DNA from: Actinomycetes bacterium
Lineage (GTDB): Bacteria; Actinomycetota; Aquicultoria; UBA3085; Oleimmundimicrobiaceae
Assembly: GCA_030614255.1 (NCBI GenBank)
Contig: JAUWKI010000004.1
Location: 4 to 64,003, forward strand
Length of the DNA stretch: 64,000 nucleotides
Direction: 5' to 3'
In this document: one piece after another, positions 1 to 64,000 of the stretch
Numbering within the stretch: position 1 is the first letter of the stretch
Layout: each line of letters begins with the position of its first letter
Notes under the pieces: generated by a model
What the model saw: only the letters and a program-made list of their open reading frames with translations
What the model was told of the DNA's origin: nothing
Databases searched by the model: none
Translations under genes and position numbers: made by a program

Positions 1-112
1 TCTGCCATCAGCCATCAGCCAAATAGTTTCTTAGTCGGGAGTTTGTTGGTTTTTTCCTTTACCCTCTCAACTTTCTATCAGCCATAAGCTATCTGCCATC
101 AGCCATCAGCCA
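1..112. repeat. Interspersed repeat copy: (CAGCCAT)n heptads plus a TAGTCGG...GTTTGTTGG module
   Basis: tctgccatcagccatcagcc at 1-20 and ctgccatcagccatcagccatcagcc at 85-110. Related to the copies listed below. Confidence 0.6.
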
Positions 113-38290: not shown

Positions 38291-38449
38291 AATCAGTCGG
38301 TAGTCTCTTGGTGGGAAGTCGGTAGTTTGTCGGCCAGATTGCTGGTCTTATTACAACACTCCATACCCTGTTTGCCATCTGCCATAAGCCATCCGCCCCG
38401 CCACCTGCCCGCCAATGCCTAACGGCATCATAGGCGTAGGTAGGCGGGG
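38291..38449. repeat. Composite repeat element D-A-B (AGTCGGTAG module, GCCATCTGCCATAAGCC module, CCTGCCCGCC...GGCGGG hairpin module)
   Basis: Near-identical to the inverted copy at 60876-61018. Confidence 0.7.
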
Positions 38450-41926: not shown

Positions 41927-42241
41927 TTAAAAAATTCTGACGAAGCAGTATCGTTGAATAAAACATTGTAATCTTTTTAAAATTATGCTATTAATTTGTC
42001 TAGCTTATTATAGAGCAACCCGAAGGTTGTAGCTTTGTAAATTAGAACTTTTTCCGAAATTAGGCCACGAAGGTCTTAACCAGCTCAAAAGCTGGATGAG
42101 ATTTTTGTGGTCTTTTTTATTTGGTAACAATTATCGAAAACTGTTTTGTTTACCAAGGAGGTGAAAATCAAAAAGCTAAATTCGGACTTAAGCTTGCAAT
42201 GTTGTTAATATAAATAAAAATCTGAAAGGAGCGCAATCTAC

Positions 42242-43942: not shown

Positions 43943-43954
43943 TGCGACCCATTT

Positions 43955-44005
43955 TGAGAGAAGAGGAACCATCATATCCATTTCCTCTTCTCTCGATTTC
44001 TTTTA
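43955..44005 (+). terminator. Rho-independent terminator after the propeller lipoprotein gene
   Basis: 13-bp perfect stem GAGAGAAGAGGAA/TTCCTCTTCTCTC followed by a T-rich tract. Confidence 0.6.
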
Positions 44006-44026
44006 ATGTGAAAAGGTTGGAGGCTT

Positions 44027-45943
44027 GTGAGAAAACTCAAAATAATTCTCATTTTAGTTCTGGTTGTCTTTTTATTTTCGGGTTGCCAGGGTAAAGGGGA
44101 GAAAGATTTAAAAATAAAAACTGTTGAGTTTGGACACCATAGGGCCGTAATTGAGCTTTCAAGAGAAACCCCAATATCCTCGGTGAGCGTTTTTGACCAG
44201 GATGGATCGCTCATAACCACAGTCACCATTGGTTCAGAAGTTTCAAAACAAGCCATCCTCTTTTTTGATTGGGAGGAGGCTCGGCCTTACTTATTCCAAA
44301 TCAATCTCAAGAACGGAAATATGATAGAAAAAGAGGTAAAATCTCCGGCCAAGCCGACCTCCGTTGCTAAATTCTGTATTCAGGCCCCCTACGGAATGAG
44401 AGAAAGCGACGAGAGGAGCCTTGTTGCCAAAGGAAGCAAAGTCACGGCCACCGTTTTTTTAGAAAGTTACTCCGGCAATCCTCTGCAAGCAAGCGTAAAA
44501 CTGACTTTGCCAAAAGAGTTCAAGCTGGTTCGAACACCTTCAATTTTTAAGGCAAAAGAGACGAGAGAAGGTCACATCCTTACGGCCGAATGCAAACTGG
44601 TAACAGAATTTGACAATTTCAACGAATTGCTGGAATTTGAGGTGCTGTCCACTCTCGCCGAAGACATCTACAAAATCGAGGGAGAAGCCACCGTTGAAGA
44701 AATAATAAACGGCGAGCGCAAGGTCACGCAGTTCCAAAAAGAAAAAGAACTGCGCGTAATCTCTTTAAAAGAGGCGAAGAACCTGGCTCATATAGCTGGA
44801 ATCAAAGTACCCACCAATGACGAGGGAGATTTTGATTCTCGTAAGAAAGAAAATACCCTGGCCCTAAGCGTAGATGGTAACAATTTCTTAAAAAGAATCC
44901 TTGGAACCGGCAACAAAGAGATTGATTACCTCGAGCACCCCCTTGCCTTTGCCACCACCACGGTCAGGAATGAAAATCAAGATAACGTGGTCTTTCTTGT
45001 AACATCCAAAGTGCTGGACCCCAAGACAAAAAAGATAGCCCAGGCCTTTCGGGTTCCTCCCAACAAAAGCGGTGGCACAGGAGTGAGTTACGCCGTAGTT
45101 TCGGTGCCCGGGAAATCGGAAGCAAAAGCAACCCTTCCTATTTATGTCAATGAAGCTGAGGTCTTGGGGGGTAAATATATTTTGGAGAGCGAAATTAAAA
45201 TATTCGGGACAGACAAAGCCATCTCTAAAAAACAAAAAGAGATCGATGTCATCACCAGAAACCCAGTCCCCGGGCTCATCACCCTCGCCGCTTTTTTAAT
45301 CACGGTGATAGGGCTTGGATATCTTGCAATTTGTCAAAAGGCATTTTTTAAAGGATTTAAGACCAAATGGCTGGTAATAATAGCTCTTTTTGGCACGGCC
45401 ACTTTCATTACGGTCAATGTGCCCGGCACCCTCCTTTGGGACTTCCTCCATGTCATCCTGGGCCCCTTTAGCTTCTTAATCACGGGAATCTTTTATGAAA
45501 TTATTCTTTACGCTCTCATCATGTCTCTTGTGGTCCTCATTCCCAGGCCGGGAGTGGTGACCCTCGCTTTGGGTGTAAGTTTTCTTTTAGGAGGAGTGGT
45601 GCTCGGCAATTTTAGCCCCGTCACCCTCATGTGGAAAGCATCTCTGATTTTTTTGCTCGAGACCACCCTATATCTCTTTGGCGTGACCAGGAAAAACGGC
45701 ATTCTGACGGATATCGGCGCGGAAAAGAGATGGCGCGTTCTCGCCACGGCGGGAATTGCCTGCGCGTTGGCTGATACCCTTTCCGTTTACATAAATTTCG
45801 GCACCACGATATTTTTATACAGACTTTACTACGCGACCTGGTACATTCATACTTATGCGGTAATCGATGGCTTCTTATACACCCTGGTGGGCGCCTTGGT
45901 GGGAACAAGATTAGGATTCAGTTTAAGAAAAATTATAGAATAG
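44027..45943 (+). CDS. Lipoprotein with ~400-aa extracytoplasmic domain fused to a C-terminal ~6-TM domain (candidate substrate-capture S-component of the downstream ECF transporter)
   Basis: Lipobox FSGC. C-terminal ~230 aa strongly hydrophobic with about 6 helices. Immediately upstream of the EcfA/EcfT genes. Confidence 0.45.
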   Translation: MRKLKIILILVLVVFLFSGCQGKGEKDLKIKTVEFGHHRAVIELSRETPISSVSVFDQDGSLITTVTIGSEVSKQAILFFDWEEARPYLFQINLKNGNMIEKEVKSPAKPTSVAKFCIQAPYGMRESDERSLVAKGSKVTATVFLESYSGNPLQASVKLTLPKEFKLVRTPSIFKAKETREGHILTAECKLVTEFDNFNELLEFEVLSTLAEDIYKIEGEATVEEIINGERKVTQFQKEKELRVISLKEAKNLAHIAGIKVPTNDEGDFDSRKKENTLALSVDGNNFLKRILGTGNKEIDYLEHPLAFATTTVRNENQDNVVFLVTSKVLDPKTKKIAQAFRVPPNKSGGTGVSYAVVSVPGKSEAKATLPIYVNEAEVLGGKYILESEIKIFGTDKAISKKQKEIDVITRNPVPGLITLAAFLITVIGLGYLAICQKAFFKGFKTKWLVIIALFGTATFITVNVPGTLLWDFLHVILGPFSFLITGIFYEIILYALIMSLVVLIPRPGVVTLALGVSFLLGGVVLGNFSPVTLMWKASLIFLLETTLYLFGVTRKNGILTDIGAEKRWRVLATAGIACALADTLSVYINFGTTIFLYRLYYATWYIHTYAVIDGFLYTLVGALVGTRLGFSLRKIIE

Positions 45944-45952
45944 GTGTTTTAA

Positions 45953-47647
45953 ATGAGAGGTTCTTTATCCATTGACAATTTAAAATTCACATACACAGGC
46001 AGAGAAAAACCGACCATCAAAGGAATTAACTTGAGCGTTCAGCCAGGGGAGTTCGTGCTGCTTACAGGCCCCACAGGTTGTGGCAAGAGTACTTTGCTTA
46101 AAACCTTAAACGGCATCATCCCTCATCAATCAGGAGGGAAGATGGAGGGAACCGTTAAAGTAAACGGCTTGGATACCAATACCGCCGAGATGCAAGACAT
46201 TTGTAAACAAGTGGGCATGGTCTTCCAAAGCCCGGACGACCAGCTCTTTTCAACCGTCATCGAGGACGAAGTGGCCTTCGGCCTGGAAAATCTGTGCCTT
46301 GGTAAAAACGAAATAGATAGAGGCATCGACTTGGCTCTTCGGAAAGTGGGTATGAAAAACCTGCGTCAAGCTCAGATAGGCACTCTTTCGGGAGGACAAA
46401 AGCAAAGGGTGGCCATAGCATCGGTTCTGGCCATGGAGCCCCGCATCCTCGCTTTAGATGAACCCCTAAGCCAATTGGACCCCGTGGGAGCCAAAGAAGT
46501 TTTAGATGTCATAAAGCGGCTCAATGTAGAGCAAAACATCACGGTGATTTTAGTCGAGCACAGGATTCACGAGATAGCGCATATGGCCTCTCGCATCCTC
46601 GTGATGGATGAAGGGAAATTGGTTCTCGATAAGCCCACAGGAAAAGCCTTTGCCAAGCTCGAGATATTCGAAAAACTGGGCCTGAGGGTCCCTGAGCCCA
46701 TTAAACTCTTCTGCGCTCTCGGTTTCTCGGAAAGACCGTTGACAAACAAGCAAGCGATAGAGACGGTGCAAGATAGGATTGAAAACGGCTTCCTCAAAAA
46801 AATAACGAGCGTTAACCGCGATAGACTTCCCCGGAGGCTGGGAAATGAGGTCGTCTCAGCAAAAGATGTTTCTTTCTCTTATTCGAAGAAGGGAGAGTGT
46901 GTTCTTAAAAATATCGACCTAAGCATCAGGGAAGGTGAAGTAGTGGCCCTCATGGGAAGCAACGGCTCCGGCAAAACCACCCTTCTTCTTCACTTGGCGG
47001 CCATACTTAAACCGTCTTCGGGAAGGATTGAGGTATTTAACGCGGATACTTGCAAAATTAGCCCCTACTCTTTAGCAAGCCAAGTAGGGGTGGTATTCCA
47101 AAATCCGGACCTTATGCTTCTTTCTGATACCGTTTGGGGTGAAGCGATGTTTGGTCCCCAGAATCTCCACCTGGAAAAGGCGGATGAGCTAGCCAGGCAA
47201 TCTTTGGAGGCAATGTCCATCGGGAAGTTAATGACCGACTCCCCCCTTGCTTTAAGCCGGGGCCAAAGGCTTCGGACTGCCGTGGCCTCCATCATTTCGA
47301 TGCAACCGAAGTTAATTCTCTTAGACGAACCCACCACAGGACAAGACAGGATCCACATTGAAGAGATGATGGCCTACTTGATCCCAAAGGACGGGGGAAA
47401 GACCGTCGTCTTTTGCACCCACGATGTCCAAACGGCGATACGATACGCCGATACCATCTTGGTTATGGATAAGGGAGTTATAGCTCAGGGTTCGCCGGAA
47501 AGTGTCTTTGAACAGGAAGACATCTTACGCCGAGCAAACTTAAGCGCCCCCGACTCTTACCACATCGCCAAAAAACTGGGCCTTGAGTCAATCTTTATGG
47601 TAGAAGAACTGGAGGATACGCTCAAATGTTTAATACTGCCTCACTGA
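45953..47647 (+). CDS. ECF-type (CbiO-like) transporter ATPase, duplicated A1-A2 fusion
   Basis: Two Walker A motifs (GPTGCGKST, GSNGSGKTT) and two ABC signatures (LSGGQKQR, LSRGQRLR). Confidence 0.85.
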   Translation: MRGSLSIDNLKFTYTGREKPTIKGINLSVQPGEFVLLTGPTGCGKSTLLKTLNGIIPHQSGGKMEGTVKVNGLDTNTAEMQDICKQVGMVFQSPDDQLFSTVIEDEVAFGLENLCLGKNEIDRGIDLALRKVGMKNLRQAQIGTLSGGQKQRVAIASVLAMEPRILALDEPLSQLDPVGAKEVLDVIKRLNVEQNITVILVEHRIHEIAHMASRILVMDEGKLVLDKPTGKAFAKLEIFEKLGLRVPEPIKLFCALGFSERPLTNKQAIETVQDRIENGFLKKITSVNRDRLPRRLGNEVVSAKDVSFSYSKKGECVLKNIDLSIREGEVVALMGSNGSGKTTLLLHLAAILKPSSGRIEVFNADTCKISPYSLASQVGVVFQNPDLMLLSDTVWGEAMFGPQNLHLEKADELARQSLEAMSIGKLMTDSPLALSRGQRLRTAVASIISMQPKLILLDEPTTGQDRIHIEEMMAYLIPKDGGKTVVFCTHDVQTAIRYADTILVMDKGVIAQGSPESVFEQEDILRRANLSAPDSYHIAKKLGLESIFMVEELEDTLKCLILPH

Positions 47648-48519
47648 TCCAACCATCCATAAAAAAAACGTTCATCCATCGAATCGACCCCCGGGCAAAG
47701 ATAACTTTCTTGCTCTGCGCGTCGATTCTTGCGGTTAGTCTCGACAAACCGAAATCGCTCTTTATCCTATTTATGGTCGCCATTTCATCTTGCATATTCG
47801 CCAAACTGCCTTGGGACAAGGTAGGGTTGCTGGCTATCTTCGTGATTTTGGGAATGTGGGGGACGATGTTCAGTCAAGCCCTGTTCTACGCGGGACACCC
47901 CCGAACAATAATTTTCGTCCTCATCTCCTCAAAGACACCTATTTTGGGAGCCATAACCGATGGACTTTACGTCTACCGGGAGGGCTTCATCCACGGCGCC
48001 GTTCAAGCGCTGCGTTTCTCTTCGATGATTTGCCTGGGATTGCTCACATGCTGGACCACCGAGCCCCGTGATTTGCTTACAGGGTTGGTGAAGTTAAAAA
48101 TCCCTTACAATTTCGCTTTCATGACGATAACCGCTTTAAGGTTCATACCTACGGTGCTTACCGAGACCAAGACGGTGATTGCTGTGGAAAGACTGAAAGG
48201 TTTTAAACCCACCAAGGTGGGAATATTCTCTTCGCTTAAAACGGCGGTCTCCACCTTGCGCCCCATCTTGGCAAACTCCGTCCGCCGGGCAAGCACCCTG
48301 GCACTATCCATAGAGAGTAGAGCGTTTAACCCAACGGCTCCCCGAAGCCACTTGAGAGACCTCCGATATAAATTCAGCGATTTTCTAATTACGGGAGGGG
48401 CAATCTCGGGAAGTTTGGCGGTAGCCACGATTAAAATAATGTATTTGCTTTATATAAACGAGATATTTTATTCATCTTCTTTAAGACATATATATCAGTT
48501 GGCGGGAAAGGTCCTGTAA
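47626..48519 (+). CDS. ECF transporter transmembrane T component (EcfT/CbiQ family)
   Basis: Multi-TM protein overlapping the ATPase stop. CbiQ-like length and topology. Confidence 0.7.
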   Translation: MFNTASLIQPSIKKTFIHRIDPRAKITFLLCASILAVSLDKPKSLFILFMVAISSCIFAKLPWDKVGLLAIFVILGMWGTMFSQALFYAGHPRTIIFVLISSKTPILGAITDGLYVYREGFIHGAVQALRFSSMICLGLLTCWTTEPRDLLTGLVKLKIPYNFAFMTITALRFIPTVLTETKTVIAVERLKGFKPTKVGIFSSLKTAVSTLRPILANSVRRASTLALSIESRAFNPTAPRSHLRDLRYKFSDFLITGGAISGSLAVATIKIMYLLYINEIFYSSSLRHIYQLAGKVL

Positions 48520-48546
48520 AAAATAATTTGAAAGGAGAATGAGAAA

Positions 48547-50907
48547 ATGATAAAAGTGGGCTCCATCATGTGGGGAAGCCACGTTTCCACACTCGTTCAA
48601 GCAAGCAAGGAGCTCGATTTCGTACAGCTTGAGCTCCGTTCCATGCGCGACTTAGAGGATGAGCTGGTACAAGAGAAGTTTCTGGAGTATCTGCGACAAG
48701 AGGCGGATGTCCTTCTTCTCTATCCGTCCGCAAACGAAGTCTGGAGCGAGATGCTCCCCGAAATTGAAAAAATTAGAAAGGCCGTACCCACCGTCTCCTT
48801 CGGTCACGACCCCTCTTTCTGGAGTCTCTCTACCGTAGATCCCGAGACGGTGGCCACGGCCTATAAATATCTGGTAACCGACGGCTTGGAAAACATGAAA
48901 AGCCTGCTATCCTATATTGCCCGCGAGGTTCTCGATATCGAGATGGAGGTCGAGCCGCTTAAGGAAACGCCATGGCAGGGAATATATCATCCCAACGCCT
49001 CATCGCACTTTGACAACCCTGAAGATTACCTCAAATGGCACAAAAAATTCGACCCCTCCTGCCCCACCGCGGGTATCCTCTTTTATCGCTCTTACTGGAT
49101 AAACGGAAACCTCGAAGTAGAAAACGCTCTTATCCGCGCATTTGAGGATAGGAAAATTAACGTTGTGCCGGTCTTCTCCCACGGCTTTAAAGAAAATGAG
49201 CTGGGGGCCAAAGGAAATGACGTGGCGATCCCCGCTCTACTAACAAGGGATGGCGAGCCAATCGTCGACATCCTGCTCAATTTGCAATCTTTCTTTCTGG
49301 TAACCCTGCCGGAAGGCTCCGATGTCGGCTGCGCTGAGGCGGGTGTAGAACTACTTAAAAAACTGGATGTCCCGGTCATCGACCCCTTGGTTTCCTACCG
49401 CAAAACCGAAGAGGAGTGGAGAGCCGATGTTCAAGGTCTTGCCGAAAACATAGTCTGGTCGGTGGCCATGCCGGAATTTGATGGAATAATTGAGCCGCTG
49501 GTAATCGGGGTTCAAACAAGAGCAAGCGACGAGGAAACCGGGGTTACCCTCGAACGATACATGCCCATCCCGGAGCGGGTCAATCACATCGTTGAGCGGG
49601 CCAAGAAATGGATTCGCCTCCGAAGGAAACCGCCTCAAGAACGAAAGGTCGTCTTCGTTCTGCACAATAATCCATGCGCTGGTGTGGAGGCCACTGTGGG
49701 CAGCGGAGCAAACTTAGATACCTTGGAAAGCGTAGCTAAAACCATGCAAAAGATGAAGGAGCAAGGATACAAGGTCGAAAAAAACCCGTCTGAGGGGAAG
49801 AAGTTAATCGAGACCATCATGGAAAGAAAAGCCATCTCCGAATTCAGATGGACCCCTGTGGAAGAGATTGTAGCAAAAGGCGGGGCACACACCCTCCTTC
49901 CCTTGGAAAAATATCTGGTGTGGTGGAACAAGTTGCCGGAAAATGTGAGAGAGAAGATGGTCTCCACCTGGGGGGAACCGCCCGGCGAAGGGATGGTCCA
50001 CGAAGGAAAAATTGTGCTCACGGGGGTAGAATATGGAAATGTCATGGTTTGTGTCCAACCCAAACGGGGATGCTATGGGGCACGCTGCGACGGACAGGTC
50101 TGCAAGATACTCCACGATCCCGACTGTCCCCCCACTCACCAATACCTGGCCACTTACAGATATCTGGAGGATATCTGGGGAGCCGATGCCGTAGTGCACG
50201 TGGGAACCCACGGCAATTTGGAGTTTTTGCCCGGAAAGGCAGTGGGGCTTTCCGATTCTTGCTATCCCGACATAGGAATCGGCACCCTCCCCCATCTCTA
50301 CATATACAACGCCGACAATCCACCGGAGGGGACCATCGCCAAGCGAAGAAGTTACGCCACGCTGATCGACCACATGCAGACGGTGATGACCGAAAGCGGT
50401 CTCTATGAAAGTTTAAAGGAGTTGGAGGGATATCTGGCCGAATATAACCAGGCTAAAATCTCCAATCCGGCCCATGCTCACGCCCTGGAGCATCTCATCG
50501 TGGACAAAATAAAGGAGTCCAAATTAGAGAAAGAGATAGGGATCGAGGAAAAAGATATTCATGGAGAAGAATCCCTCGACAAAACCGTCAAACGGGCCCA
50601 CGAAGTTTTAACTCGCCTGAGAGAGACCCAAATTCAAGACGGCATGCACATCTTCGGGGAGCTCCCTCAAAGCGACGCCCGAGTAGAGTTCATAAACTCC
50701 ATTCTTCGTTACGACTCGGATGAAGAATTCTCTTTCCGGAAGACAATCTTTGAGCTCATGGACTTAAACTACAATTACGCCTTGAACAACCCCGCCGAAT
50801 ATTACGATGACTTCGGTAAAACCTATGGGGAGCTGCTCGAAGAGGCCCAAGGATACTCAAAGGAGTTCATTAGGGAGTTTCTCGCACACGAAGAGGAGGT
50901 AAATTAA
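48547..50907 (+). CDS. cobN: CobN-like chelatase, N-terminal portion (786 aa)
   Basis: CobN/Mg-chelatase H family motifs (HVGTHGNLEFLPGK, YIYNADNPPEG). Ends at an in-frame TAA. Confidence 0.8.
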   Translation: MIKVGSIMWGSHVSTLVQASKELDFVQLELRSMRDLEDELVQEKFLEYLRQEADVLLLYPSANEVWSEMLPEIEKIRKAVPTVSFGHDPSFWSLSTVDPETVATAYKYLVTDGLENMKSLLSYIAREVLDIEMEVEPLKETPWQGIYHPNASSHFDNPEDYLKWHKKFDPSCPTAGILFYRSYWINGNLEVENALIRAFEDRKINVVPVFSHGFKENELGAKGNDVAIPALLTRDGEPIVDILLNLQSFFLVTLPEGSDVGCAEAGVELLKKLDVPVIDPLVSYRKTEEEWRADVQGLAENIVWSVAMPEFDGIIEPLVIGVQTRASDEETGVTLERYMPIPERVNHIVERAKKWIRLRRKPPQERKVVFVLHNNPCAGVEATVGSGANLDTLESVAKTMQKMKEQGYKVEKNPSEGKKLIETIMERKAISEFRWTPVEEIVAKGGAHTLLPLEKYLVWWNKLPENVREKMVSTWGEPPGEGMVHEGKIVLTGVEYGNVMVCVQPKRGCYGARCDGQVCKILHDPDCPPTHQYLATYRYLEDIWGADAVVHVGTHGNLEFLPGKAVGLSDSCYPDIGIGTLPHLYIYNADNPPEGTIAKRRSYATLIDHMQTVMTESGLYESLKELEGYLAEYNQAKISNPAHAHALEHLIVDKIKESKLEKEIGIEEKDIHGEESLDKTVKRAHEVLTRLRETQIQDGMHIFGELPQSDARVEFINSILRYDSDEEFSFRKTIFELMDLNYNYALNNPAEYYDDFGKTYGELLEEAQGYSKEFIREFLAHEEEVN

Positions 50908-52458
50908 GTGGAAATAAAATTGGATCAGCGGTTAAAGGAGTTTGAAAACCTCGCCACAAACATCATGGGCGACAGATTCATAAATCCCGAAGCACTCGAA
51001 AAACTCTCGGTTCTAAAGTCGAAAGTTTTGGACATCTCCGCCAGGATTGAGGCCTCAAAGGAAATCGAAAGCCTGCTTCACGGACTCTCCGGCGGCTACA
51101 TCGAAAGCGGGCCCTCGGGACTTATCACCCGAGGGAGGGCAGACATCCTTCCCACCGGAAGAAATTTTTACTCTCTCGACCCTTATAAGGTTCCCACCAA
51201 GGCCGCTTGGAGGGTGGGAAGAAGCCTTGCAAACGGTTTAATTGAAAAATATGTGGCAGACACGGAAGAGATGCCCGAGAACTGCGGCATGGTGCTCTTC
51301 TGCACCGATATTATGTGGTCAGATGGCGAGGAAGTATCGCAGATTCTCTATCTTTTGGGCGTGGAGCCGAAATGGTTGAGCAACGGCCGGGTGAAGGGTT
51401 TTCGGATAATCCCTTTGGAAGAGCTCGGCCGGCCCAGAATAGACGTGACCATCCGTATCGGGGGCATAACACGAGATTGCTTCCCCAATATCATGGAGTA
51501 TCTGGACGAGGCAATAACGGCGGTTGCCTCCCTGGATGAACCCTTGGAGCTCAACTTCGTCCGCAAACACGCCCTCGAGCAACTCGACGGCTCTTTGGAC
51601 CCGCAAGCGTGGAGAGAGGCCACTTCCCGCATCTTCGGCAGTCGCCCGGGAACCTACGGCTCCGGCGTAAATCTTGCCGTCTACGCCAGCGCGTGGAAAG
51701 AGGAAGAGGACCTGGCAGATGTCTTTACTTATTGGAGCGGCTACGCCTACGGCAAGGAGATGTTTGGTAAAGAATCCCATGAAACCTTCTTCAAACAGCT
51801 CAAGTCGGTTGATTTGACTTATAATAAGACGGTAACCGACGAATATGATTTATTCGGCTGTTGCTGCTATTTCTCCTATCAAGGAGGACTGACGGCAGCG
51901 GCTAAAAATGCCTCGGGGAAAGAGGTAAAAACCTACTATGGCGACACAAGAAACCCGGCCAAGATCGAAGTAAGGGATTTGGCCGATGAAATTAGGCGCG
52001 TAGTGCGGACAAAGCTTCTCAACCCAAAATGGATCGAGGGAATGAAGCGTCACGGCTACAAAGGAGCCGGTGATATCTCCAAAAGAATAGGTAGGGTCTA
52101 CGGATGGGAAGCGACCACCGAACAGGTCGACGATTGGATATTCGACGAAATCGCCGAAACATTCGTATTAAATGAAGAGAACCGAAAGTTCTTCGAGGAA
52201 AATAACCCCTGGGCCCTGGAAGAAGTGGGTCGAAGGCTTTTGGAGGCCGAACAAAGGGACCTATGGGATGCCAATCCAGAGGTCTTGCAACAATTAAAAC
52301 AAGCTTATCTCGAAATAGAGGGTTGGATGGAAGAAAAAACCGGTGACGTCCAAGGCGAATTTCAAGGAGGAGCGGTGGATGTAATTACGATGGATGAGGT
52401 CGAAGACTGGGGAGAAAAGATGAAGAAGTTAAAGAAAAAATTGCATGGTGGAGGATAA
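50908..52458 (+). CDS. cobN: CobN-like chelatase, C-terminal portion (516 aa), same frame as the upstream ORF
   Basis: CobN C-terminal motifs (ADILPTGRNFYSLDP). GTG start 8 nt after a GGAGG RBS, directly after the TAA. Confidence 0.8.
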   Translation: MEIKLDQRLKEFENLATNIMGDRFINPEALEKLSVLKSKVLDISARIEASKEIESLLHGLSGGYIESGPSGLITRGRADILPTGRNFYSLDPYKVPTKAAWRVGRSLANGLIEKYVADTEEMPENCGMVLFCTDIMWSDGEEVSQILYLLGVEPKWLSNGRVKGFRIIPLEELGRPRIDVTIRIGGITRDCFPNIMEYLDEAITAVASLDEPLELNFVRKHALEQLDGSLDPQAWREATSRIFGSRPGTYGSGVNLAVYASAWKEEEDLADVFTYWSGYAYGKEMFGKESHETFFKQLKSVDLTYNKTVTDEYDLFGCCCYFSYQGGLTAAAKNASGKEVKTYYGDTRNPAKIEVRDLADEIRRVVRTKLLNPKWIEGMKRHGYKGAGDISKRIGRVYGWEATTEQVDDWIFDEIAETFVLNEENRKFFEENNPWALEEVGRRLLEAEQRDLWDANPEVLQQLKQAYLEIEGWMEEKTGDVQGEFQGGAVDVITMDEVEDWGEKMKKLKKKLHGGG

Positions 52459-52464
52459 GCTCAA

Positions 52465-53463
52465 TTGGATAAAATAATTGAAGCAAGAGAACTAACAAAA
52501 TACTATGATGGCAATCTGGCGGTAGATGATATCAACCTCGAAATCCCAAGAGGTGAAGCTTTTGGTTTACTCGGGCCCAACGGCGCGGGAAAGACCACCA
52601 CGGTGCTCATGCTCACCACCCTGCTCAAACAAAGCGGGGGGAAAGCATCAGTCTGTGGATTCGATATAGCAAAAGAGGCTCGCGGAGTAAGAAAACATAT
52701 AAGTTACGTGCCTCAAGGATTGGCCGTAGATGATGCTCTCACGGCGCGGGAAAGCCTGGAGCTCTTCGGCTCCCTTTACGGCATACCCCCCGCCAAACGA
52801 AAACAAAGGATGGATTACTTCCTCGAGTTCTTCGAACTTTCCATGGTTGCAGATAATCCCGCTGCCACTTACTCTGGCGGAATGAAGAGGAAGCTGGAGT
52901 TAGCTCAAGCCCTCATCCATCAACCGGAAGTCGTCTTCCTGGACGAGCCCACCATCGGTCTAGACGTCACCGCCCGCCATAAGATATGGGAATTCATCCT
53001 CAGACTAAAAGAAGAAAAGAAGGTTACCTTCTTTATCACCACCCATTACATGGACGAAGCGGCGGTGCTTTGCGACAGGGTGGCCATAATCACCAAGGGA
53101 AAAATCGTTTGCTCGGGCTCCCCAAGCACGTTATCCAGTCAAATTGGAGGAGATGTAATTAGAATACGTATAGAGAAAGAGGACGTGGAGAAAGCTTCTG
53201 AAGCGCTGGAAGGAATGGAGAAAATTAAAAGTAAAAAATGCATTAAAACGGAATTGGAACTAATAGTGGAAGAGGGCGACAAGTTCTTGCCTGAGGTCAT
53301 GCAAGTTTTAACTTCAAAGGAAATCACCATCAACTCGGTTTTGATGAAGCAAGCCGGCTTGGACGAGGTGTTCATTAAATACACGGATGATACCGAAGAG
53401 AGCCCAAGCCCCAAAGAGGCCAGAAAACACAAAAAAATTATAAGAAAGCTAATGAGAGGGTGA
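52465..53463 (+). CDS. ABC transporter ATP-binding protein (ABC-2/DrrA-like)
   Basis: GPNGAGKTT, YSGGMKRKL, Walker B VVFLDEPT. Confidence 0.85.
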   Translation: MDKIIEARELTKYYDGNLAVDDINLEIPRGEAFGLLGPNGAGKTTTVLMLTTLLKQSGGKASVCGFDIAKEARGVRKHISYVPQGLAVDDALTARESLELFGSLYGIPPAKRKQRMDYFLEFFELSMVADNPAATYSGGMKRKLELAQALIHQPEVVFLDEPTIGLDVTARHKIWEFILRLKEEKKVTFFITTHYMDEAAVLCDRVAIITKGKIVCSGSPSTLSSQIGGDVIRIRIEKEDVEKASEALEGMEKIKSKKCIKTELELIVEEGDKFLPEVMQVLTSKEITINSVLMKQAGLDEVFIKYTDDTEESPSPKEARKHKKIIRKLMRG

Positions 53464-54209
53464 TGTTGTTGTTTAATGCCTTCATAAAAATCTGTAAACG
53501 CGATATCAAGATATTATTTAGACTCAAAATAAACTTAATTGCCTCAATAGTCGGCCCCGTCGCCTGGTTGGCGGTGCTCGGCTCTTTGCCCATGTCAACA
53601 AATTCAGGAAGGTATTTGGATTATGTAACTCCCGGCATAATGGTGATGTCCGTCATGATGCCCTCACTTCAAAGCGGCTTGCTCACCTCGGCCGACAAAA
53701 TCTATGGTTATTTAAAGAAGATATTCGCAACCCCCACTCCGCGGCCGGTGATAGTCATGGGCAAAATTACGGCGGCCATGAGCAAGGGAATGATTCATCT
53801 CTCGGCCGTCCTTGCCACCGCGTGGATTCTCGGCGCGAGAATGGAAGGTGGTCTTGCTGGTCTTCTACTGGTATTTGGATGCGCCCTCTTCTTTGCCATG
53901 GGCCTCTCGGCCCTTTCAATATTTATCGCCTTCAAGGTGGCCGATTTGCACGGTTTCGGTGCAATTATAAGCTTAGTTAGCTTGCCGCTTTTCTTGGCCA
54001 GTTCGGCCCTGATGCCTTTGGACAAGATGCCGGCATGGTTGCGATGTGTGGCATCAATAAATCCGGTCACTTACATCATCGACATCTCAAGAAAAATAAT
54101 GCTCACCGGGAACATATCGGGCTGCGGTTTGATCTTATTGATTCTGATATCATTGGCCTTGAGTATGATAATCTTATGTATGCGCACCTTTGAAAAAGGT
54201 TTTGAGTAA
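53460..54209 (+). CDS. ABC-2 family transporter permease
   Basis: Six-TM hydrophobic protein overlapping the ATPase stop. Confidence 0.7.
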   Translation: MMLLFNAFIKICKRDIKILFRLKINLIASIVGPVAWLAVLGSLPMSTNSGRYLDYVTPGIMVMSVMMPSLQSGLLTSADKIYGYLKKIFATPTPRPVIVMGKITAAMSKGMIHLSAVLATAWILGARMEGGLAGLLLVFGCALFFAMGLSALSIFIAFKVADLHGFGAIISLVSLPLFLASSALMPLDKMPAWLRCVASINPVTYIIDISRKIMLTGNISGCGLILLILISLALSMIILCMRTFEKGFE

Positions 54210-54229
54210 ATAAACGAGGAGGACAATAA

Positions 54230-56245
54230 ATGAGTTGTTTAGCTGGTAAAGTATATTCCTTCACCGCAATTGTGGGACAGGACAAGATGAAAAAGGCCCT
54301 GATTTTAAATGTCATCAACCCCAAGCTCGGCGGGGTACTCATCAAGGGCCAAAAAGGAACTGCCAAATCAACCGCCGTTCGCGCTCTTGCCGACCTTTTG
54401 CCCGAAATAGAAGTGGTCGAGGGCTGCCCCTTTGGCTGTAATCCTCACACTGAAGCAGAAATGTGTCCCCACTGTCTTGAAAAAAAGCTAATTGAAGACA
54501 AACTGCCCCTCTCCCACCGGAAAATGAAGGTGGTTACCCTCCCCATCAATGCCACGGAGGATAGAGTAGTAGGAACGTTGGACATAGAGCGCGCGATAAA
54601 ACATGGCGAAAAACGTTTTGAGCCGGGGATTCTGGCGGATTCCCACCGCGGCTTCCTTTATGTTGACGAGGTGAACTTGCTCGATGACCACATAGTTGAC
54701 ATTCTGCTGGACTCCGCCGCGATGGGAGTCAACACCGTCGAGAGAGAGGGGATCTCCTTCTCACACCCCGCCCACTTTATACTGGTGGGAACGATGAACC
54801 CCGAAGAAGGAGATTTAAGGCCACAACTTTTGGACAGGTTCGCACTCTGTGTCGAAGTCGAGGGCATAAGCGATACAAAAGAAAGGGTGGAGATAATTAA
54901 GAGGCGAATGAGCTATGAAAACGACCCTCATTCCTTCGGCCATCGCTGGGAAGACACTCAAGAAAATTTGCGCCGTCAAGTCCTGGCCGCCGAAGCACTC
55001 CTGCCTAAGACAGAGATATCCGACGATATGCTGCACTTAATAGCCGAAATCTGCGTGGGGATGGACGTGCACGGACACAGAGCCGACATCGTGATGATGA
55101 AGACGGCTAAAACTATCGCCGCCTTTCATCAAAGAAGGGAAGTAACCGAGAAAGATGTGAAAGAAGCTGCTGAGCTCGCCCTGCCTCACAGGATGAAGAG
55201 AAAGCCGTTCGAGGAGCAAAAACTGGACCAAGAAAAGTTGGAGCAAACCATCGAAAAACATAAGAAAAATCGGAGCGAACCCGAGCAAGCCGAGCAAGAA
55301 CAGAAAGAACCTCAAGAATCATCACACCGTGCCTACCGACAGGCAGGAAATCAGGATGACCAAAAGGAGGCTCCGGATAATTCGTCTTCAAAAACCTTTG
55401 ATGTCGGAACCCCCTTTAAAACAAGGGATATCAAGATGCCAAAAGACAAGCTTCCTCGCACGGGTGGCGGAAGGAGGGCAAAGAGCGTTACGGGCTCGAA
55501 GTCCGGCAAATATGTTCGGAGCACCATCCCCAAAGACAAGACAACGGACATCGCCCTCGACGCAACCATAAGAGCCGCCGCCATCAGACCGTGCCTACCG
55601 GCAGGCAGGAACGGAAAAAATGAGACCGGAAAGACTGGTTTAAAAATTGAAAAACCCGATTTACGCCAGAAGGTAAGAGAAAAGAAGGTCGGCGCATCCA
55701 TCCTCTTTGTGGTCGACGCCAGCGGCTCCATGGGCGCGAAAGAGAGGATGGTGGTGGCCAAAGGAGCTGTGCTTTCGCTCCTAATCGACGCCTATCAAAG
55801 ACGGGATAAGGTCGGGCTCATAGCTTTCAGGAGAAAGAGCGCGGAGCTCTTGCTTCCATTAACAGACAGCGCTGAAACCGCCCAAAGTTATCTCAGAGAG
55901 CTTCCAACGGGAGGAAAAACCCCTTTGTCCCATGGGCTAACCCTCACGCTTGAGACATTCAATAAAGAAAGGGCCAAAAACAAAAAGGTCCTTCCTCTTA
56001 TGGTTTTAATAACCGACGGGAAAGCCAACGTTTCTTTGAGCGAGAAAAATGCAGTTGAAGAAGCCGGGGAAATCGCGGAAAAATTTGCCGAAGCAAAAAT
56101 AAAAAGCTTGATTATCGACACAGAAAACGACTTCTTGAACCTGGGGCTCGCCAAAGAAATAGCGAACGCCTGTGATGGCGAATATATAAAGCTGGAGGAG
56201 CTTGAAGCGGAGAAATTGGCTCATATGGTTAAGGAAATAAACTAG
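54230..56245 (+). CDS. ChlI/ChlD-like chelatase subunit (AAA+ ATPase fused to vWA/MIDAS domain)
   Basis: N-terminal AAA+ (GQKGTAKST). Acidic/Pro-rich linker. C-terminal vWA with DASGSM MIDAS. Confidence 0.8.
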
Positions 56246-56273
56246 CTAAAAATCAACGAGTGGGCAATGGGGG

Positions 56274-57143
56274 TCAGGTCTTGTTTTTTGACATTTCTTC
56301 TTCTTTTGTGATTCTGCTTATCGTCGAATAGTGCATCTTGAGATGATTGGCAATTTCTTTCTGGCTGTAGCCATATTGCTCTGTTGCCTCCACTATCTTC
56401 TTATTTCTCATCTGTTTATTCTCCAATATTCTTTTCTTAAACAAACTTTCAAGACTTGGTCTGCCAACATATCTTTGGTGCTTAGGAATATCCTTTATTT
56501 TTTCCTGTCCTTTTAAATAACTTTTAAATTCCTCAACAAAATCATTATCGCCAAGCAGGATTTGTCCTTTTGCCTTTATCCAAATTGATTCTTCTTCTAT
56601 TCCTGCCTTAACAAACTCTCTGTATCTTTTCCTTGCCGGTTTTATCTTTGGGCCAAATTGAGCTAAAACCCAGTTTGTTGTGAGGCAGGGATGAGGTTTT
56701 TCCAAGCCGGCAGTAGCACGATAACTGCCATATCTCCATTCTTCGGGGTCTTTAACCAGCTTTGCTCTTATGGGGTTTAAGACCACGTATCTGCAGACCT
56801 CAAGAAGATGGCTTTCTTTCTGGATGAGTATGGCTTTGTATCTTCCTTGAAAGATGTGACCCACCCTGTGATGCTTTTTATTGAAGGTCTGTGTGTATAC
56901 CCCGTTTAGTTGTCTCATGCCCTTGGAGAGATTTCCATCGGGAGTTTCGATAATTAGATGGTAGTGGTTATTCATCAGACAATAAGCGTGGCAGATAAAA
57001 TTGTATTTCTTGTTTACACTTTTGAGAACGTTTAGAAAGATTTCTTGGTCTTTTTCATCATAAAATATGGGCTTCTTTTCATTGCCTCTTGATGTTATGT
57101 GATATATAGCTCCGCTGTATTCTATCCTTAAAGGTCTTGCCAT
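56274..57143 (-). mobile_element. RAYT/IS200-like Y1 transposase (HuH) with C-terminal HTH domain, flanked by imperfect inverted repeats
   Basis: NHYHLII HuH motif and RYVVLNP Tyr region. Inverted repeats GGGGTCAGGTCTT...GACAT at 56270-56294 and 57173-57197. Confidence 0.7.
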
Positions 57144-57228
57144 GAAATACTTGTAACATATCTAATGATTTAATGTCAAGATTAAAGACCTGACCCCTTT
57201 TGCTTTTGTGCTTTTGCAAACTCTGATA

Positions 57229-60743: not shown

Positions 60744-60875
60744 TTTCCCTCATTTATTTGAATTGCAAATATTTTGTATTCCAAAGTATATCTCTTCGAA
60801 GAGGTAGCGTCAAGGGGAAGTGTCCAGCCTCCAGAGAACCAGTTGAAGTAAAGTTTTAATAGAAGATTGCTTGTG

Positions 60876-61153
60876 CCTGCCCGCCTCTGGCGGGGCTGAT
60901 AGCGTATGGCAGATAGCAGATGGTGAATGGAATACAGAGTATAGAATGTGGAATATAGTAAAATCAGTAATTTGGCCGGCAAACTACCGACTTCCCACTA
61001 AGAGACTACCGACTGATTGGTAATGGGTATAGTTAAATGAAAAATGGAGAATGAAAAAATAAAAATGTCTTTAAGGATTTTTGTAAGACCAGCAATCTAG
61101 AAAACTTTTTCATTTTTCTATGTAGTTCTACCTGCCCACTGATAGGCACGGTG
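60876..61153. repeat. Composite repeat element B-A-D in inverted orientation, plus module C (inverted) at 61131-61153
   Basis: Reverse complement of 60974-61018 is CCAATCAGTCGGTAGTCTCTTAGTGGGAAGTCGGTAGTTTGCCGGCC, matching 38291-38336. Confidence 0.7.
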
Positions 61154-61205: not shown

Positions 61206-61475
61206 ATGACCGTGCACCCGCCTTCGACATTAAACTACAAGCGAAATCCCGACAGTTAACTCCAGTCAGGTGAACCTGCGGCACCCGGTAGTTCTTGCTT
61301 ACCGCTGCTTCCTTCCGGACCTGACGGGGTTCACAAGCTGCCGTCGCACAGGACCCAACCTTCAATGCCACTTATCAAAATTCCGTTCTCATAGCCAATG
61401 CCTCCGGAGGGAATTCAGTCCCGCTATAGCGGATTGCGGGTACAGGGCACCGCTAACTCCCCACTTAGCACGGTC
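61206..61475 (-). ncRNA. ffs: Signal recognition particle RNA, long (Bacillus/archaeal type with Alu domain)
   Basis: Minus-strand sequence contains CAGGTCCGGAAGGAAGCAGC (domain IV). The 5' region GGTGCCCTGTACCCGCAATCCGC aligns with the B. subtilis scRNA Alu domain. Ends GACCGTGC/GCACGGTC pair. Confidence 0.75.
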
Positions 61476-61508
61476 AAAGAAATTATAACATCTTTTGTTT
61501 TTATAATT

Positions 61509-61602
<94 letters not shown>

Positions 61603-61758
61603 CGACCCCTCCCAAAAACAGCTAATAGTTTATAGTTTCCAGTCATAAATTTCGAGTATCCACAGGATTAGAAGTGAATGGTAAAAACTGCTTTTATTTC
61701 TTGCTTTTCACTCTTTGCTCTCATCTACCGACTGTCGACTCCTCACTACCAACTAAAT

Positions 61759-61852
61759 TGGCGGAGAGGGAGGGATTCGAACCCTCGTCCCGCCGTAAGG
61801 CAGGAAACGGTTTTCGAGACCGCCGCACTCGGCCAGACTATGCGACCTCTCC
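61759..61852 (-). tRNA. tRNA-Ser (anticodon CGA), CCA encoded, long variable arm
   Basis: 94 nt. Acceptor GGAGAGG/CCTCTCC. Anticodon loop CTCGAAA. T-loop GGTTCGAATCC. Confidence 0.85.
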
Positions 61853-61862
61853 AAGGGCTATT

Positions 61863-62309
61863 TTAGCGTCTTTTCCTGAAAAAGTCTTGCAAGAGTTTGC
61901 GGCATTCTTCTTCGCAAACTCCAGAGATTACGGTGGTTTGATGATTCAATCGCGCGTCATTTGTAATGTTGTAAAGAGTGCCTGCCGCGCCGGCTTTTAT
62001 GTCAGGCGCTCCATAAATCAACTCATCCACCCGTGCCTGAAAAATAGCTCCCGCGCACATTGGGCAAGGTTCTTTGGTAACAAAGAGCTTACAATCCGAA
62101 AGCCGCCAACTTCCTAAATGCTTTGCCGCCCGCTGGATAGCTAAAATTTCGGCATGGGCCGTGGGATCTTGTCTCTTTTCGCATTCGTTGCGCGCTTTCG
62201 CAATAATATCGCCCTTAAAAACAACAATGGCGCTTACCGGCACCTCATCTTCAGAAGCTGCTTTTTTCGCTTCTCCTATGGCAATTTCCATGTATTCTTC
62301 ATCCGTCAT
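61863..62309 (-). CDS. tadA: tRNA-specific adenosine deaminase
   Basis: HAE...PCPMCAGA CDA zinc motifs. 148 aa. Confidence 0.9.
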   Translation of the reverse strand: MTDEEYMEIAIGEAKKAASEDEVPVSAIVVFKGDIIAKARNECEKRQDPTAHAEILAIQRAAKHLGSWRLSDCKLFVTKEPCPMCAGAIFQARVDELIYGAPDIKAGAAGTLYNITNDARLNHQTTVISGVCEEECRKLLQDFFRKRR

Positions 62310-62448
62310 ATTTCAACCCAACTAAATTTTGCCAGCCCTAAAAAACTCGCGAATTTCCCTAACACTTCCGCATTCGATAAATCTGTTTTTTGCTCCCGAC
62401 TCCTCACTGCTAACTATCAACTATTTGCTTTGCAAATTTATTGGTGCG

Positions 62449-62500
62449 CCTGACAGGAGTCGAACCTGCAACCTTTGGATCCGTAGTCCGTTCAGATAGC
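62449..62500 (-). other. tRNA-like 3' fragment (T-arm + acceptor 3' strand + ACCA) without a matching 5' half
   Basis: Minus-strand GCAGGTTCGACTCCTGTCAGGCGCACCA. No complementary GCGCCTG 5' acceptor or D/anticodon arms could be found upstream. Confidence 0.4.
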
Positions 62501-63212
62501 TCACGGTTAAATCAGTTAGAGCCAACCACCCGTTTTAAGTGCGAAAATTAAAACAAGCTTCCCGAACAAATGTTTGGAAAATGGCTAAATCTGAAAATTT
62601 TGTTACTTTTTTGGTGCTATCAGATATCAATTTCCAAAGTTCAAACGCGCTAAAATATAGTAGCAGAATTCGAGCATAAAAAAAAGAAGCTCTGGGGAGA
62701 CTGAAGAAAATCCTTACTTAGAGATTTTGTTACTATGATGTTACCCCTAACGCCTGCCATCACCAGTGGGCGGGGCTAACTGGACTATCTTCGAACTTTT
62801 AAGCGAGCATATTTCCAATAATCCGATAGATGAGAAGGTGCTGGATTTTTTGCTTGAGGTGGCGTAAAAATAAGGATTTACAGGATTTTGAAGTATCAGT
62901 TTCCTTTACAAAATACTCCCCGAGAGCTTCTTCCTTATTTAAAGACTGAACATAAAACTCCAGCTAAACGGATTAATGAGAGCACTTTAAAGCAGTCTTT
63001 AGAGGCGGATTAATGGTTTAGTATGGGGAAATTAAAGAAAAAAACGAACTACTGTGCTTTAATTCTTTTCTTACTCATTCTCTGTGGTTGTTTATTCGAA
63101 AAAACAGCGTTTGGATCTTTGTATCCAAGTGCTGTTCATTTCAAAAAGTGTGCTATGCTCTGTTTGAAAAACTGTGAATAGACACAAATATTTTAACATT
63201 CTTCTCGTTCCT

Positions 63213-63536
63213 TTAAGACAAATCAAGATGAGTTTTAATTGCCTCACCTATTTTTAGCATATCTTCAGACGAAAGAACTCCAAATCGACCGGTCAAGCGC
63301 TTTTTACTTACAGTCGCCAACTGATCCGCCATTGCTTTGCTTTTTGTCTTATTCACGATAACGTAAGCTTCACTGGGATAGCAACGCTCAATATTGCTGG
63401 TTACCGGAACAACCTGGACACGATTGAGAAATTTATTTGCTGCGTTATTACTCACTATAACGGCTGGGCGTTTCTTTTGAATCTCTCCCCCTATTGATGG
63501 CTCAAAATTGACCCACCAGACTTCACCACGCTTCAT
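63213..63536 (-). CDS. mazF: MazF/PemK-family endoribonuclease toxin
   Basis: 107 aa. GEVWWVNF...KRPAVIVS...VPVTS signature. Confidence 0.8.
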   Translation of the reverse strand: MKRGEVWWVNFEPSIGGEIQKKRPAVIVSNNAANKFLNRVQVVPVTSNIERCYPSEAYVIVNKTKSKAMADQLATVSKKRLTGRFGVLSSEDMLKIGEAIKTHLDLS

Positions 63537-63753
63537 TGTAACTATCTCCGAAAGTGGCTTCCGCCCATCCTAATGCCTCTTTTTCTCGCCCTACATCTTT
63601 TGACATTTGCTTGTAAGCTAATCCAAGATTTTCTTTTATTACGTATGGACGAACTAAGCCCTCAATAAATTTACCGATTTTCCCTCGCCCTATCCGTGCG
63701 TGGAGACCTTCATAAACTTTTTCATCAATTGTAATTGTAAGCTTCTTTTGCAT
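63523..63753 (-). CDS. Putative cognate antitoxin (RHH-like N-terminus)
   Basis: 76 aa. Overlaps toxin start by 14 nt. N-terminal LTITIDEKVYEGL beta-strand/helix pattern. Confidence 0.45.
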   Translation of the reverse strand: MQKKLTITIDEKVYEGLHARIGRGKIGKFIEGLVRPYVIKENLGLAYKQMSKDVGREKEALGWAEATFGDSYNEAW

Positions 63754-63816
63754 GACCTTAAGACTCCTTTCATTTTTATACGTACATTATACGTATAATC
63801 TTAGTTGATGTCAAGA
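63753..63816 (-). promoter_or_regulatory. Sigma70-type promoter and palindromic operator of the toxin-antitoxin operon
   Basis: On the minus strand: TTGACA (63809-63814), 17-nt spacer, TATAAT (63786-63791). Overlapping inverted repeat TATACGTA-CAT-TACGTATA. AAAGGAG RBS before the ATG. Confidence 0.5.
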
Positions 63817-64000
63817 TTTACAACAGCTGAAAAGAGGGGAAATAAATTTGAAAAAATTTTAGAGTAAAGATATTGTGAAATTAAATGGTCTATCTTCTTT
63901 CAACTTTAGAGGGAAATTGATAAAAGTTGTTGAAAATTAACAACGATCTGTTTGTAAAAGAAGCTTGATAGCTTAGTTTGTGTTAAGGATATAGTTTACA

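Follow-up and report, generated by a model that had tools for sequence, protein, structure and literature searches.

The last 1.5 kb of the 64,000-nt stretch of actinobacterial DNA analysed here (hereafter the window) most probably form the boundary of an island inserted in a tRNA-Arg(ACG) gene beside tadA, the orphan tRNA fragment found there being the displaced 3' end of that gene. The boundary is an ordinary edge of an island in a tRNA gene (tDNA island), at least partly decayed; it is a known kind of genomic scar, not a new system, and leaves the known working of such islands unchanged. For an uncultured actinobacterial lineage, it gives the precise position of an island edge and an integration hot spot that has been used, the tRNA-Arg(ACG) gene by tadA, and it connects this hot spot with a conjugative element and with an integrase family that targets tRNA genes. 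It also helps genome annotation, as the tail of the window can be read as accessory DNA, and helps explain why assemblies break at tRNA-Arg(ACG). The loci fetched for comparison are designated below by L numbers and the integrase proteins by P numbers.

On the minus strand, positions 62442-62489 hold the final 48 nt of a tRNA-Arg(ACG) gene, which start in the anticodon stem and end with the CCA. They read GGA/CUACGGA/UCCAA/AGGUU/GCAGG-UUCGACU-CCUGU/CAGGCGC/A/CCA and respectively comprise 3 bp of the anticodon stem, the Arg(ACG) anticodon loop, the other stem strand, a 5-nt variable loop, the full T arm, the acceptor 3' strand, the discriminator and the encoded CCA. With the 5 nt that follow the CCA (ATAAA), the fragment makes up a block of 53 nt (GGACTACGGATCCAAAGGTTGCAGGTTCGACTCCTGTCAGGCGCACCAATAAA) that is identical to the corresponding part of the intact tRNA-Arg(ACG) genes of relatives (L009-L016), a match of a length that was never reached in 100 shuffles. 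The fragment and the tRNA of the relatives are identical from tRNA position 29 on, 3 bp ahead of the anticodon loop. What remains is one end of a tRNA gene and not a piece of its interior, no complete tRNA overlaps the fragment, and it should not be annotated as a tRNA gene. A preliminary description of this DNA had reported an orphan 3' tRNA end with a perfect T arm and ACCA, which is indeed present. The size of 28 nt that it gave does not hold: that 28-mer occupies 62442-62469 of the minus strand, its start 7 nt to the left of where it had been placed, and the real extent of 48 nt makes the fragment identifiable as Arg(ACG).

In the whole window, ARAGORN with default settings reports two tRNA-Ser genes alone, and neither a tRNA nor a transfer-messenger RNA (tmRNA) at the fragment. 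No gene appears at this site when introns of up to 2 kb are allowed, and a search of Rfam, both at the gathering threshold and with E values up to 10, is equally negative there for tRNA, tmRNA and group I introns. The 5' half expected from the relatives was not found in any part of the 64 kb with up to three mismatches, which bears out the earlier remark that no such half could be found; likewise, the region proposed for a check with tRNA-finding programs (62449-62800) holds no complete tRNA or tmRNA according to ARAGORN and Rfam. One might still suppose that a complete but unusual RNA gene is hidden between 62442 and 62800, for instance a tRNA interrupted by a long intron, a tmRNA in permuted or two-piece form, or a larger RNA with a tRNA-like 3' end. 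An encoded ACCA end and a perfect T arm are also typical of tmRNA, and ARAGORN run with introns at an 80% threshold calls a "tRNA-Ser" with a 134-nt intron at 62442-62648. Yet this call is one of several scattered, low-score calls obtained at lowered thresholds (3 kb scanned) and it conflicts with the Arg(ACG) anticodon loop. Moreover, tmRNA needs a G3:U70 pair for alanine charging, whereas the acceptor 3' strand CAGGCGC implies a G3:C70 pair. The fragment and the DNA upstream of it fold no better than shuffled sequences (z = +0.41), whereas the relatives have at the same place an ordinary 77-nt tRNA whose intact gene folds into a cloverleaf. Given the ARAGORN searches with introns and lowered thresholds and the Rfam search, a hidden tRNA, tmRNA or intron was rejected; such a gene is hardly conceivable here.

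A scan of representative genomes with the T-arm/acceptor 28-mer gave six hits, of which five belong to unrelated bacteria and fall in intact tRNA-Arg genes. The remaining one comes from Candidatus (Ca.) Oleimmundimicrobium americanum UBA3085, a member of a genus assigned to the class Ca. Aquicultoria of the Actinomycetota, and is situated in the terminal 912 nt (L009) of a 72,912-nt contig. Window positions 61842-62489 share 86% identity with L009, and the UBA3085 contig ends exactly at the equivalent of 62489. A scan of metagenomes with a 44-mer retrieved four contigs. In L012 and L013, ARAGORN and BLAST reveal the order tRNA-Ser(TGA), tRNA-Ser(GCT), intact tRNA-Arg(ACG), tadA, tRNA-Ser(CGA), tRNA-Ser(GGA) and signal recognition particle (SRP) RNA. 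The window matches this order over 61210-62489, except that just the last 48 nt of the Arg gene remain. The same intact arrangement is found in two loci reached through ubiA, L019 (a 341-kb contig with 86-88% identity) and L020 (74% identity). At 86% identity, L009, L012 and L013 set tRNA-Arg(ACG) between tRNA-Ser(GCT) and tadA, and tadA itself is syntenic and 86-88% identical in L009, L012, L013 and L019. The empty version of the site is therefore known from four loci (L012, L013, L019 and L020), in which an intact tRNA-Arg(ACG) gene stands straight before tadA; in all, three related lineages of Ca. Oleimmundimicrobium have the intact gene at this place. The similarity of the window to its relatives ends at 62489 in every comparison, and the genes that the relatives carry upstream of tRNA-Arg, namely tRNA-Ser(GCT), tRNA-Ser(TGA), ubiA and serS, were not found in the window. 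The ubiA orthologues of the expected far flank led to relatives devoid of the island or to contigs ending in the tRNA cluster, and to nothing else.

The substrate of TadA is tRNA-Arg(ACG), and the neighbourhood made up of serS, two tRNA-Ser genes, tRNA-Arg(ACG), tadA, two more tRNA-Ser genes and SRP RNA (window 61210-62489; L014, L019) sets tadA beside the gene of its substrate tRNA. This arrangement is also reminiscent of Bacillus subtilis and its serS / tadA / scr region.

The site also exists in an occupied version. L011, a contig of 1453 nt from the sample that also yielded L010 and L013, contains an intact tRNA-Arg(ACG), a terminator hairpin and a convergent tyrosine-recombinase open reading frame (ORF) of 366 aa, called as a gene of 359 aa. 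In L011, L014 and L015, the tRNA-Arg(ACG) gene is separated by a 67-nt spacer with the terminator from this convergent 359-aa tyrosine integrase, which carries PF00589; the exact protein (P0001) is thus also present on the longer contigs L014 and L015. Beyond it, these two contigs encode an HTH_17 excisionase-like protein, two HTH_3 proteins, a type IV secretion system (T4SS) pilin, TrbL_3, PrgI, a VirB11/T2SSE-type ATPase and two T2SSF proteins. In other contigs of these populations, a tyrosine integrase and genes for conjugation thus come after the tRNA, which makes tRNA-Arg(ACG) a used integration site. The occupied (L011, L014) and empty (L012, L019, window) versions are the same through the tRNA and diverge 5 nt past the CCA. 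This divergence, together with the boundary of the window at tRNA position 29, defines the 53-bp block at 62437-62489. Three contigs of one sample (L010, L011 and L013) overlap by 17 + 77 + 5 = 99 nt across the tRNA and then branch. Such an overlap with branching would correspond to a fork in the assembly graph, where tRNA-to-tadA and tRNA-to-integrase versions coexist in one population, and the contig breaks at the tRNA may be linked to this heterogeneity.

The DNA beyond tRNA-Arg(ACG) in L014 (1-11080) and L015 (1-4065) resembles an integrative and conjugative element (ICE) of Ca. Oleimmundimicrobium; it also includes a ParA/CbiA-like gene and exceeds 11 kb, being cut by the contig ends. This ICE-like element and the window share the tRNA target, the identical 53-bp block and the host lineage. 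They differ in that 62490-64000 has no nucleotide similarity to the element outside the block, and the integrase stub described below is closer to P0002, a protein associated with tRNA-Lys, than to the integrase of L014 and L015. Three integrases (P0001, P0002 and P0003) show 72-75% identity and converge on different targets, respectively tRNA-Arg(ACG), tRNA-Lys(CTT) and tRNA-Met(CAT). Their loci have a common layout, in which the stop codon is followed by a conserved spacer (GATTTTGTTAC...), a terminator hairpin and the tRNA's 3' end. They make up a small family whose architecture has been preserved through changes of the target tRNA. The tRNA genes that neighbour the latter two are found at L017 3926-4001 (tRNA-Lys(CTT)) and L026 2506-2582 (tRNA-Met(CAT)). 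In IMG/VR, relatives of the integrase were found at 29-35% identity only, and three DNA patterns had no match in viral contigs.

On the other side of the boundary, the DNA from 62490 to 64000 is non-syntenic with the relatives and is a mosaic of five pieces. Its GC content (36.7% against 44.7% for the whole window) lies below that of all 625 sliding windows of 1.5 kb, so that the AT-rich tract of the preliminary description is real. The first piece adjoins the fragment and is followed, 190 nt inside the boundary, by the stub of a tyrosine-integrase gene with its last 13 codons (KKEALGRLKKILT, then the stop) and a conserved post-stop spacer of 23 nt. Over 64 nt, this stub shares 89% identity (E = 4e-17) with the end of the P0002 gene, namely its last 40 nt and the 23 nt after its stop (L017/L018), and it shares 80% with the same part of P0003 (L026/L027); the match of the peptide alone is weak (E = 0.08). 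It is cut on both sides: the rest of the integrase gene is gone, and the terminator and tRNA core expected after it are missing. A tblastn search with 60 members of the integrase family detected no other relative in the 64-kb window with E values up to 1e-3. An 11-mer of the integrase-gene spacer (ATTTTGTTACT) at 62725 has a second copy at 62598. It could be an arm-type binding site, and 62490-62680 is possibly an arm of the old attachment site.

Two further readings of this side were tried and rejected. The MazEF-like block described below does not appear to be an insertion in the integrase-tRNA spacer, because the similarity by which the spacer would resume after 63848 is not significant (p about 0.12). 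The hairpin at the junction 62740-62780 is no better than shuffles (z = -0.52), which does not support a transposon end.

Taken together, these observations can be explained by the following scenario. A tyrosine-integrase element would have recombined with tRNA-Arg(ACG) at or beside the anticodon loop. If the element carried its own copy of the 3' part of the tRNA, a complete tRNA would have been regenerated at the far, integrase-proximal end, beyond 64000; we infer this from the intact tadA and from the general rule for tDNA islands. The original 3' part of the tRNA would have stayed beside tadA as an attR-type scar, and everything from 62490 upward would be island DNA. The element, or the innermost of a tandem series, may subsequently have lost nearly all of the DNA that separated its distal arm from the terminal 40 nt of its integrase gene, and the region beside the stub may have been replaced or interrupted by DNA with the MazEF cassette. 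The MazF/PemK cassette may help retain the DNA by post-segregational killing. The preliminary description had likewise proposed a remnant of an attachment site left by an integrase-mediated insertion, which the empty and occupied sites in relatives and the integrase stub 190 nt inside the boundary support, and it had correctly placed the element toward higher coordinates, as the homology of the relatives stops at 62489. Its view of an island edge holds for the boundary but not for the tidy end of a single element, the visible part being a decayed mosaic that has ceased to work as an element end.

The scar is of a well documented type. A tDNA island restores the gene that it enters, and a displaced fragment marks its end (PMC4383910). 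In the Islander collection, such a 3' fragment was left by 3760 of 3919 islands, and the attachment site was centred on the anticodon in 2083 of the 3919 (PMC4383910); the position of the boundary in the anticodon region matches this anticodon-centred class, the other known places of crossover being the T loop and the T/acceptor junction. The likeness extends to the displaced 3' tDNA end by the original downstream gene, the break in the anticodon region, the deviant composition, and the integrases of the same family that converge on tRNA 3' ends in relatives. In contrast with the Islander cases, one end is visible here, the 13-codon stub is the only integrase trace of the visible part, and the cognate intact tDNA is not in the window. 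The site can also be compared to the cis-mobilizable elements (CIMEs) and to integrative elements that accrete in tandem, as described for Streptococcus thermophilus ICESt3 (ICEberg 2.0, PMC6323972). As in these, a remnant without integration and transfer genes lies at the attachment site of an ICE family, and an older integrase stub stands just inside the outer att scar. Yet a CIME is defined by the loss of the integrase and transfer genes with both attL and attR kept intact (PMC6323972), and a single attR-type scar is visible here, so that membership in the class cannot be claimed. Independently of this lineage, an unrelated metagenome-assembled genome of Bacteroidetes (L004) has a 29-nt copy of a tRNA-Arg 3' end about 85 nt downstream of an intact tRNA-Arg(TCG) (5590-5618 and 5702-5776), which is probably another attachment-site scar.

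Several observations weigh against the insertion of an island. The window ends 1.5 kb into the putative island, and within it there is no regenerated tRNA, no second 53-bp block and no intact integrase. None of the relatives yielded an element of the integrase family that is complete and flanked by the two repeats, their contigs being cut within 1.3-11 kb of the integrase. The sole integrase trace is 64 nt long and is closest to the relative that adjoins tRNA-Lys, not tRNA-Arg. Because the expected terminator and tRNA core do not follow the stub (from 62745 on), at least one further rearrangement must be assumed. Finally, the independent assembly that covers part of the tail (L003) spans 62796-63917 only and does not reach the junction at 62489/62490.

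Part of these observations would fit a truncation of the tRNA gene by an event that was not site-specific, such as a deletion, a rearrangement mediated by an insertion sequence (IS) or illegitimate recombination, which would make the fragment a dead pseudogene formed without any integrase crossover. The region is clearly rearranged, as seen from the stub cut on both sides, an orphan gene-end module and the IS200-type transposase that lies by the same cassette elsewhere, and the window displays no second core copy. Nevertheless, the break falls in the anticodon stem-loop, the preferred position of crossover (PMC4383910), a related species has a contig that stops at this very nucleotide, and relatives have an integrase element at the same tRNA. 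In addition, tadA is intact, which would make the loss of the tRNA without a regenerated copy improbable. A random truncation is thus unlikely.

Alternatively, the junction could be a chimera of metagenome assembly, in which a tRNA sequence common to both would have linked the tadA flank with unrelated DNA. The DNA probably stems from a metagenome contig, the assemblies of relatives break at this very tRNA, and the junction itself is without independent support. However, a join through the shared tRNA would normally keep the whole tRNA, whereas here the 5' half is missing and the break falls together with the att-type boundary. The DNA beyond it carries an integrase stub of the expected family, and the tail is 100% identical in an independent run (L003). 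Such a chimera is very unlikely, and the boundary of a tDNA island is favored over both alternatives. The features of the region are collected in Table 1.

Table 1. Features at and around the boundary in the tRNA-Arg(ACG) gene
Feature	Position	Strand	Evidence
tadA, tRNA adenosine(34) deaminase	61863..62309	-	NCBIfam NF008113, 156.7 bits against a cut-off of 150
Displaced tRNA-Arg(ACG) 3' fragment and ATAAA, most probably an attR-type island boundary	62437..62489	-	100% identity over 53 nt to L009-L016; no 5' half
Probable island-side DNA adjoining the fragment	62490..62680	.	35% GC; no BLAST match at word size 7 in the fetched loci
Tyrosine-integrase gene stub, last 13 codons, and conserved 23-nt post-stop spacer	62681..62744	+	Similarity to the P0002 and P0003 loci
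Orphan copy of a lineage-specific module of about 100 nt with a conserved 32-aa C-terminal peptide	62766..62867	+	Copies in L001, L002, L035 and L036
MazEF cassette block: promoter, antitoxin and toxin genes, 3' region of about 430 nt, 100-nt module	62779..63848	-	1070 bp, behaving as a discrete unit
PemK/MazF-family toxin gene, 107 aa	63213..63536	-	Pfam PF02452 (PemK_toxin), 95.2 bits against a cut-off of 23.1
Putative antitoxin gene, 76 aa	63523..63753	-	Upstream of the toxin gene, 14-nt overlap
Promoter TTGACA-17-TATAAT and palindrome	63776..63814	-	Hexamers 63814..63786, 12/12 matches to the sigma-70 consensus
AT-rich DNA running off the window	63849..64000	.	63754-64000 at 28% GC; not common to L001/L002

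The largest piece of the mosaic is the MazEF cassette. L001 and L002 contain this 1070-bp block with 98.1% identity, between two flanks that are unlike those of the window and with an IS200-type tnpA directly at its promoter side, and it is 100% identical in the part of L003 that covers it. Judging from the 98% identity in another genomic context, the cassette has a history of its own and is a separately mobile unit. The preliminary description had recognized a toxin-antitoxin pair with its own consensus promoter, and the PF02452 toxin, the overlapping 76-aa ORF and the perfect promoter agree with it. The toxin scores below the NCBIfam equivalog cut-offs of MazF and ChpB (NF007386, 44 bits against 120), and it is a member of the PemK/MazF family and not an E. 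coli-type MazF equivalog. The putative antitoxin matches no Pfam family with E values up to 10, and NCBIfam gives only MazE with E = 0.17 (12 bits against a cut-off of 65). It belongs to no recognised family, whether MazE/AbrB-type or ribbon-helix-helix (RHH), and its gene order and overlap with the toxin gene fit an antitoxin. The palindrome (63776-63798) has 9-bp arms and overlaps the -10 hexamer; none of 200 shuffles folds as well (z = -3.36), and it is likely to be an autoregulation operator. The pair resembles the PemK/MazF type II toxin-antitoxin modules of mobile DNA in its PemK-fold toxin, its small overlapping upstream partner, its strong promoter with a palindromic operator and its presence in horizontally moving DNA. 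It differs from them in that its antitoxin is without a described family and its toxin lies under the equivalog cut-offs. Plasmid collections gave weak similarity to mazF only and phage collections no match. The 3' region of the cassette includes a 52-aa ORF (63023-63181, plus strand) conserved in L001-L003, with a lipoprotein-like signal, LILCGC; in L001 and L002 it reads LILYDC, which breaks the lipoprotein motif. A weak Rfam match to RsaE (RoxS) at 63026-63136 overlaps this ORF and is probably due to chance (23.9 bits against a gathering threshold of 79, E = 0.32).

The low-coordinate end of the cassette block is the module ORF (GGANWTIFELLSEHISNNPIDEKVLDFLLEVA, then the stop). Its other copies are found twice in L001 (141-272 and 1829-1931), in L002, twice in L035 (6025-6123 and 8013-8114) and in L036 (1509-1623). 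L035 and L036 come from GCA_030651595.1, whose proteins are labelled Ca. Oleimmundimicrobium sp., the only source label seen for the module. The alignment of five copies shows conservation from GG..TGG to exactly the stop codon, the upstream sequence being different in each. The copy of the window and copy A of L001 have 10 differences, none of them at a second codon position (as counted from the alignment), and the conservation looks coding. An ATG start is present only in the L035 copy next to dapB, where it opens a 40-aa ORF. Before four of the six copies there is a terminator-like hairpin. The copies of L001 are direct repeats that flank an IS200 tnpA and MazEF, and those of L035 flank an AbiEi/AbiEii cassette. 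Among 1.84 billion representative proteins, phmmer found only ORFs of 40-60 aa that match at their C-terminus, and no long parent protein; the long hits are artefacts of summed low-complexity repeats. A fragment of a known large protein was therefore rejected as the origin of the module, no Pfam or NCBIfam family and no long homologue being found. An attC site of an integron was rejected as well, since no hairpin forms, the folds of the two strands being no better than those of shuffled sequences (z = +0.2 to +1.25), and the conservation stops at the stop codon. As a tentative idea, more doubtful than probable, a 40-aa gene, of which the module would be the 3' end, may act as a second, cassette-dedicated integration site in Ca. 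Oleimmundimicrobium, where toxin-antitoxin or abortive-infection cassettes (MazEF here and in L001, AbiEi/AbiEii in L035) would insert and each duplicate the last 32 codons, much as tRNA-targeting islands do with the tRNA 3' end. If true, such insertions would yield arrays of cassettes without integron attC sites.

Apart from the boundary, a second variable region of the genome was observed at 41906-57228, where a segment of 15.3 kb stands in place of 1.3-2.9 kb in L013 and L019. It encodes a PQQ-type beta-propeller protein, energy-coupling factor (ECF) and ATP-binding cassette (ABC) transporter proteins, a ChlI/VWA protein and a CobN-type chelatase split in two ORFs (48547-50907 and 50908-52458). 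An IS200-like Y1 transposase gene of 289 aa is also present (56274-57143, minus strand). Finally, an interspersed repeat of about 55 nt with 85-91% identity occurs in the window (41-111, 38292-38330 and 60874-60924), in L017 (4411-4467 and 4864-4920) and in L035 (123-195), and motifs that are similar and short (CGACTCCTCACT...) stand after the tRNA-Ser(CGA) gene (61736-61755) and after the tRNA-Arg fragment (62397-62416); in L017, the copies of the repeat lie in the spacers between tRNA genes.

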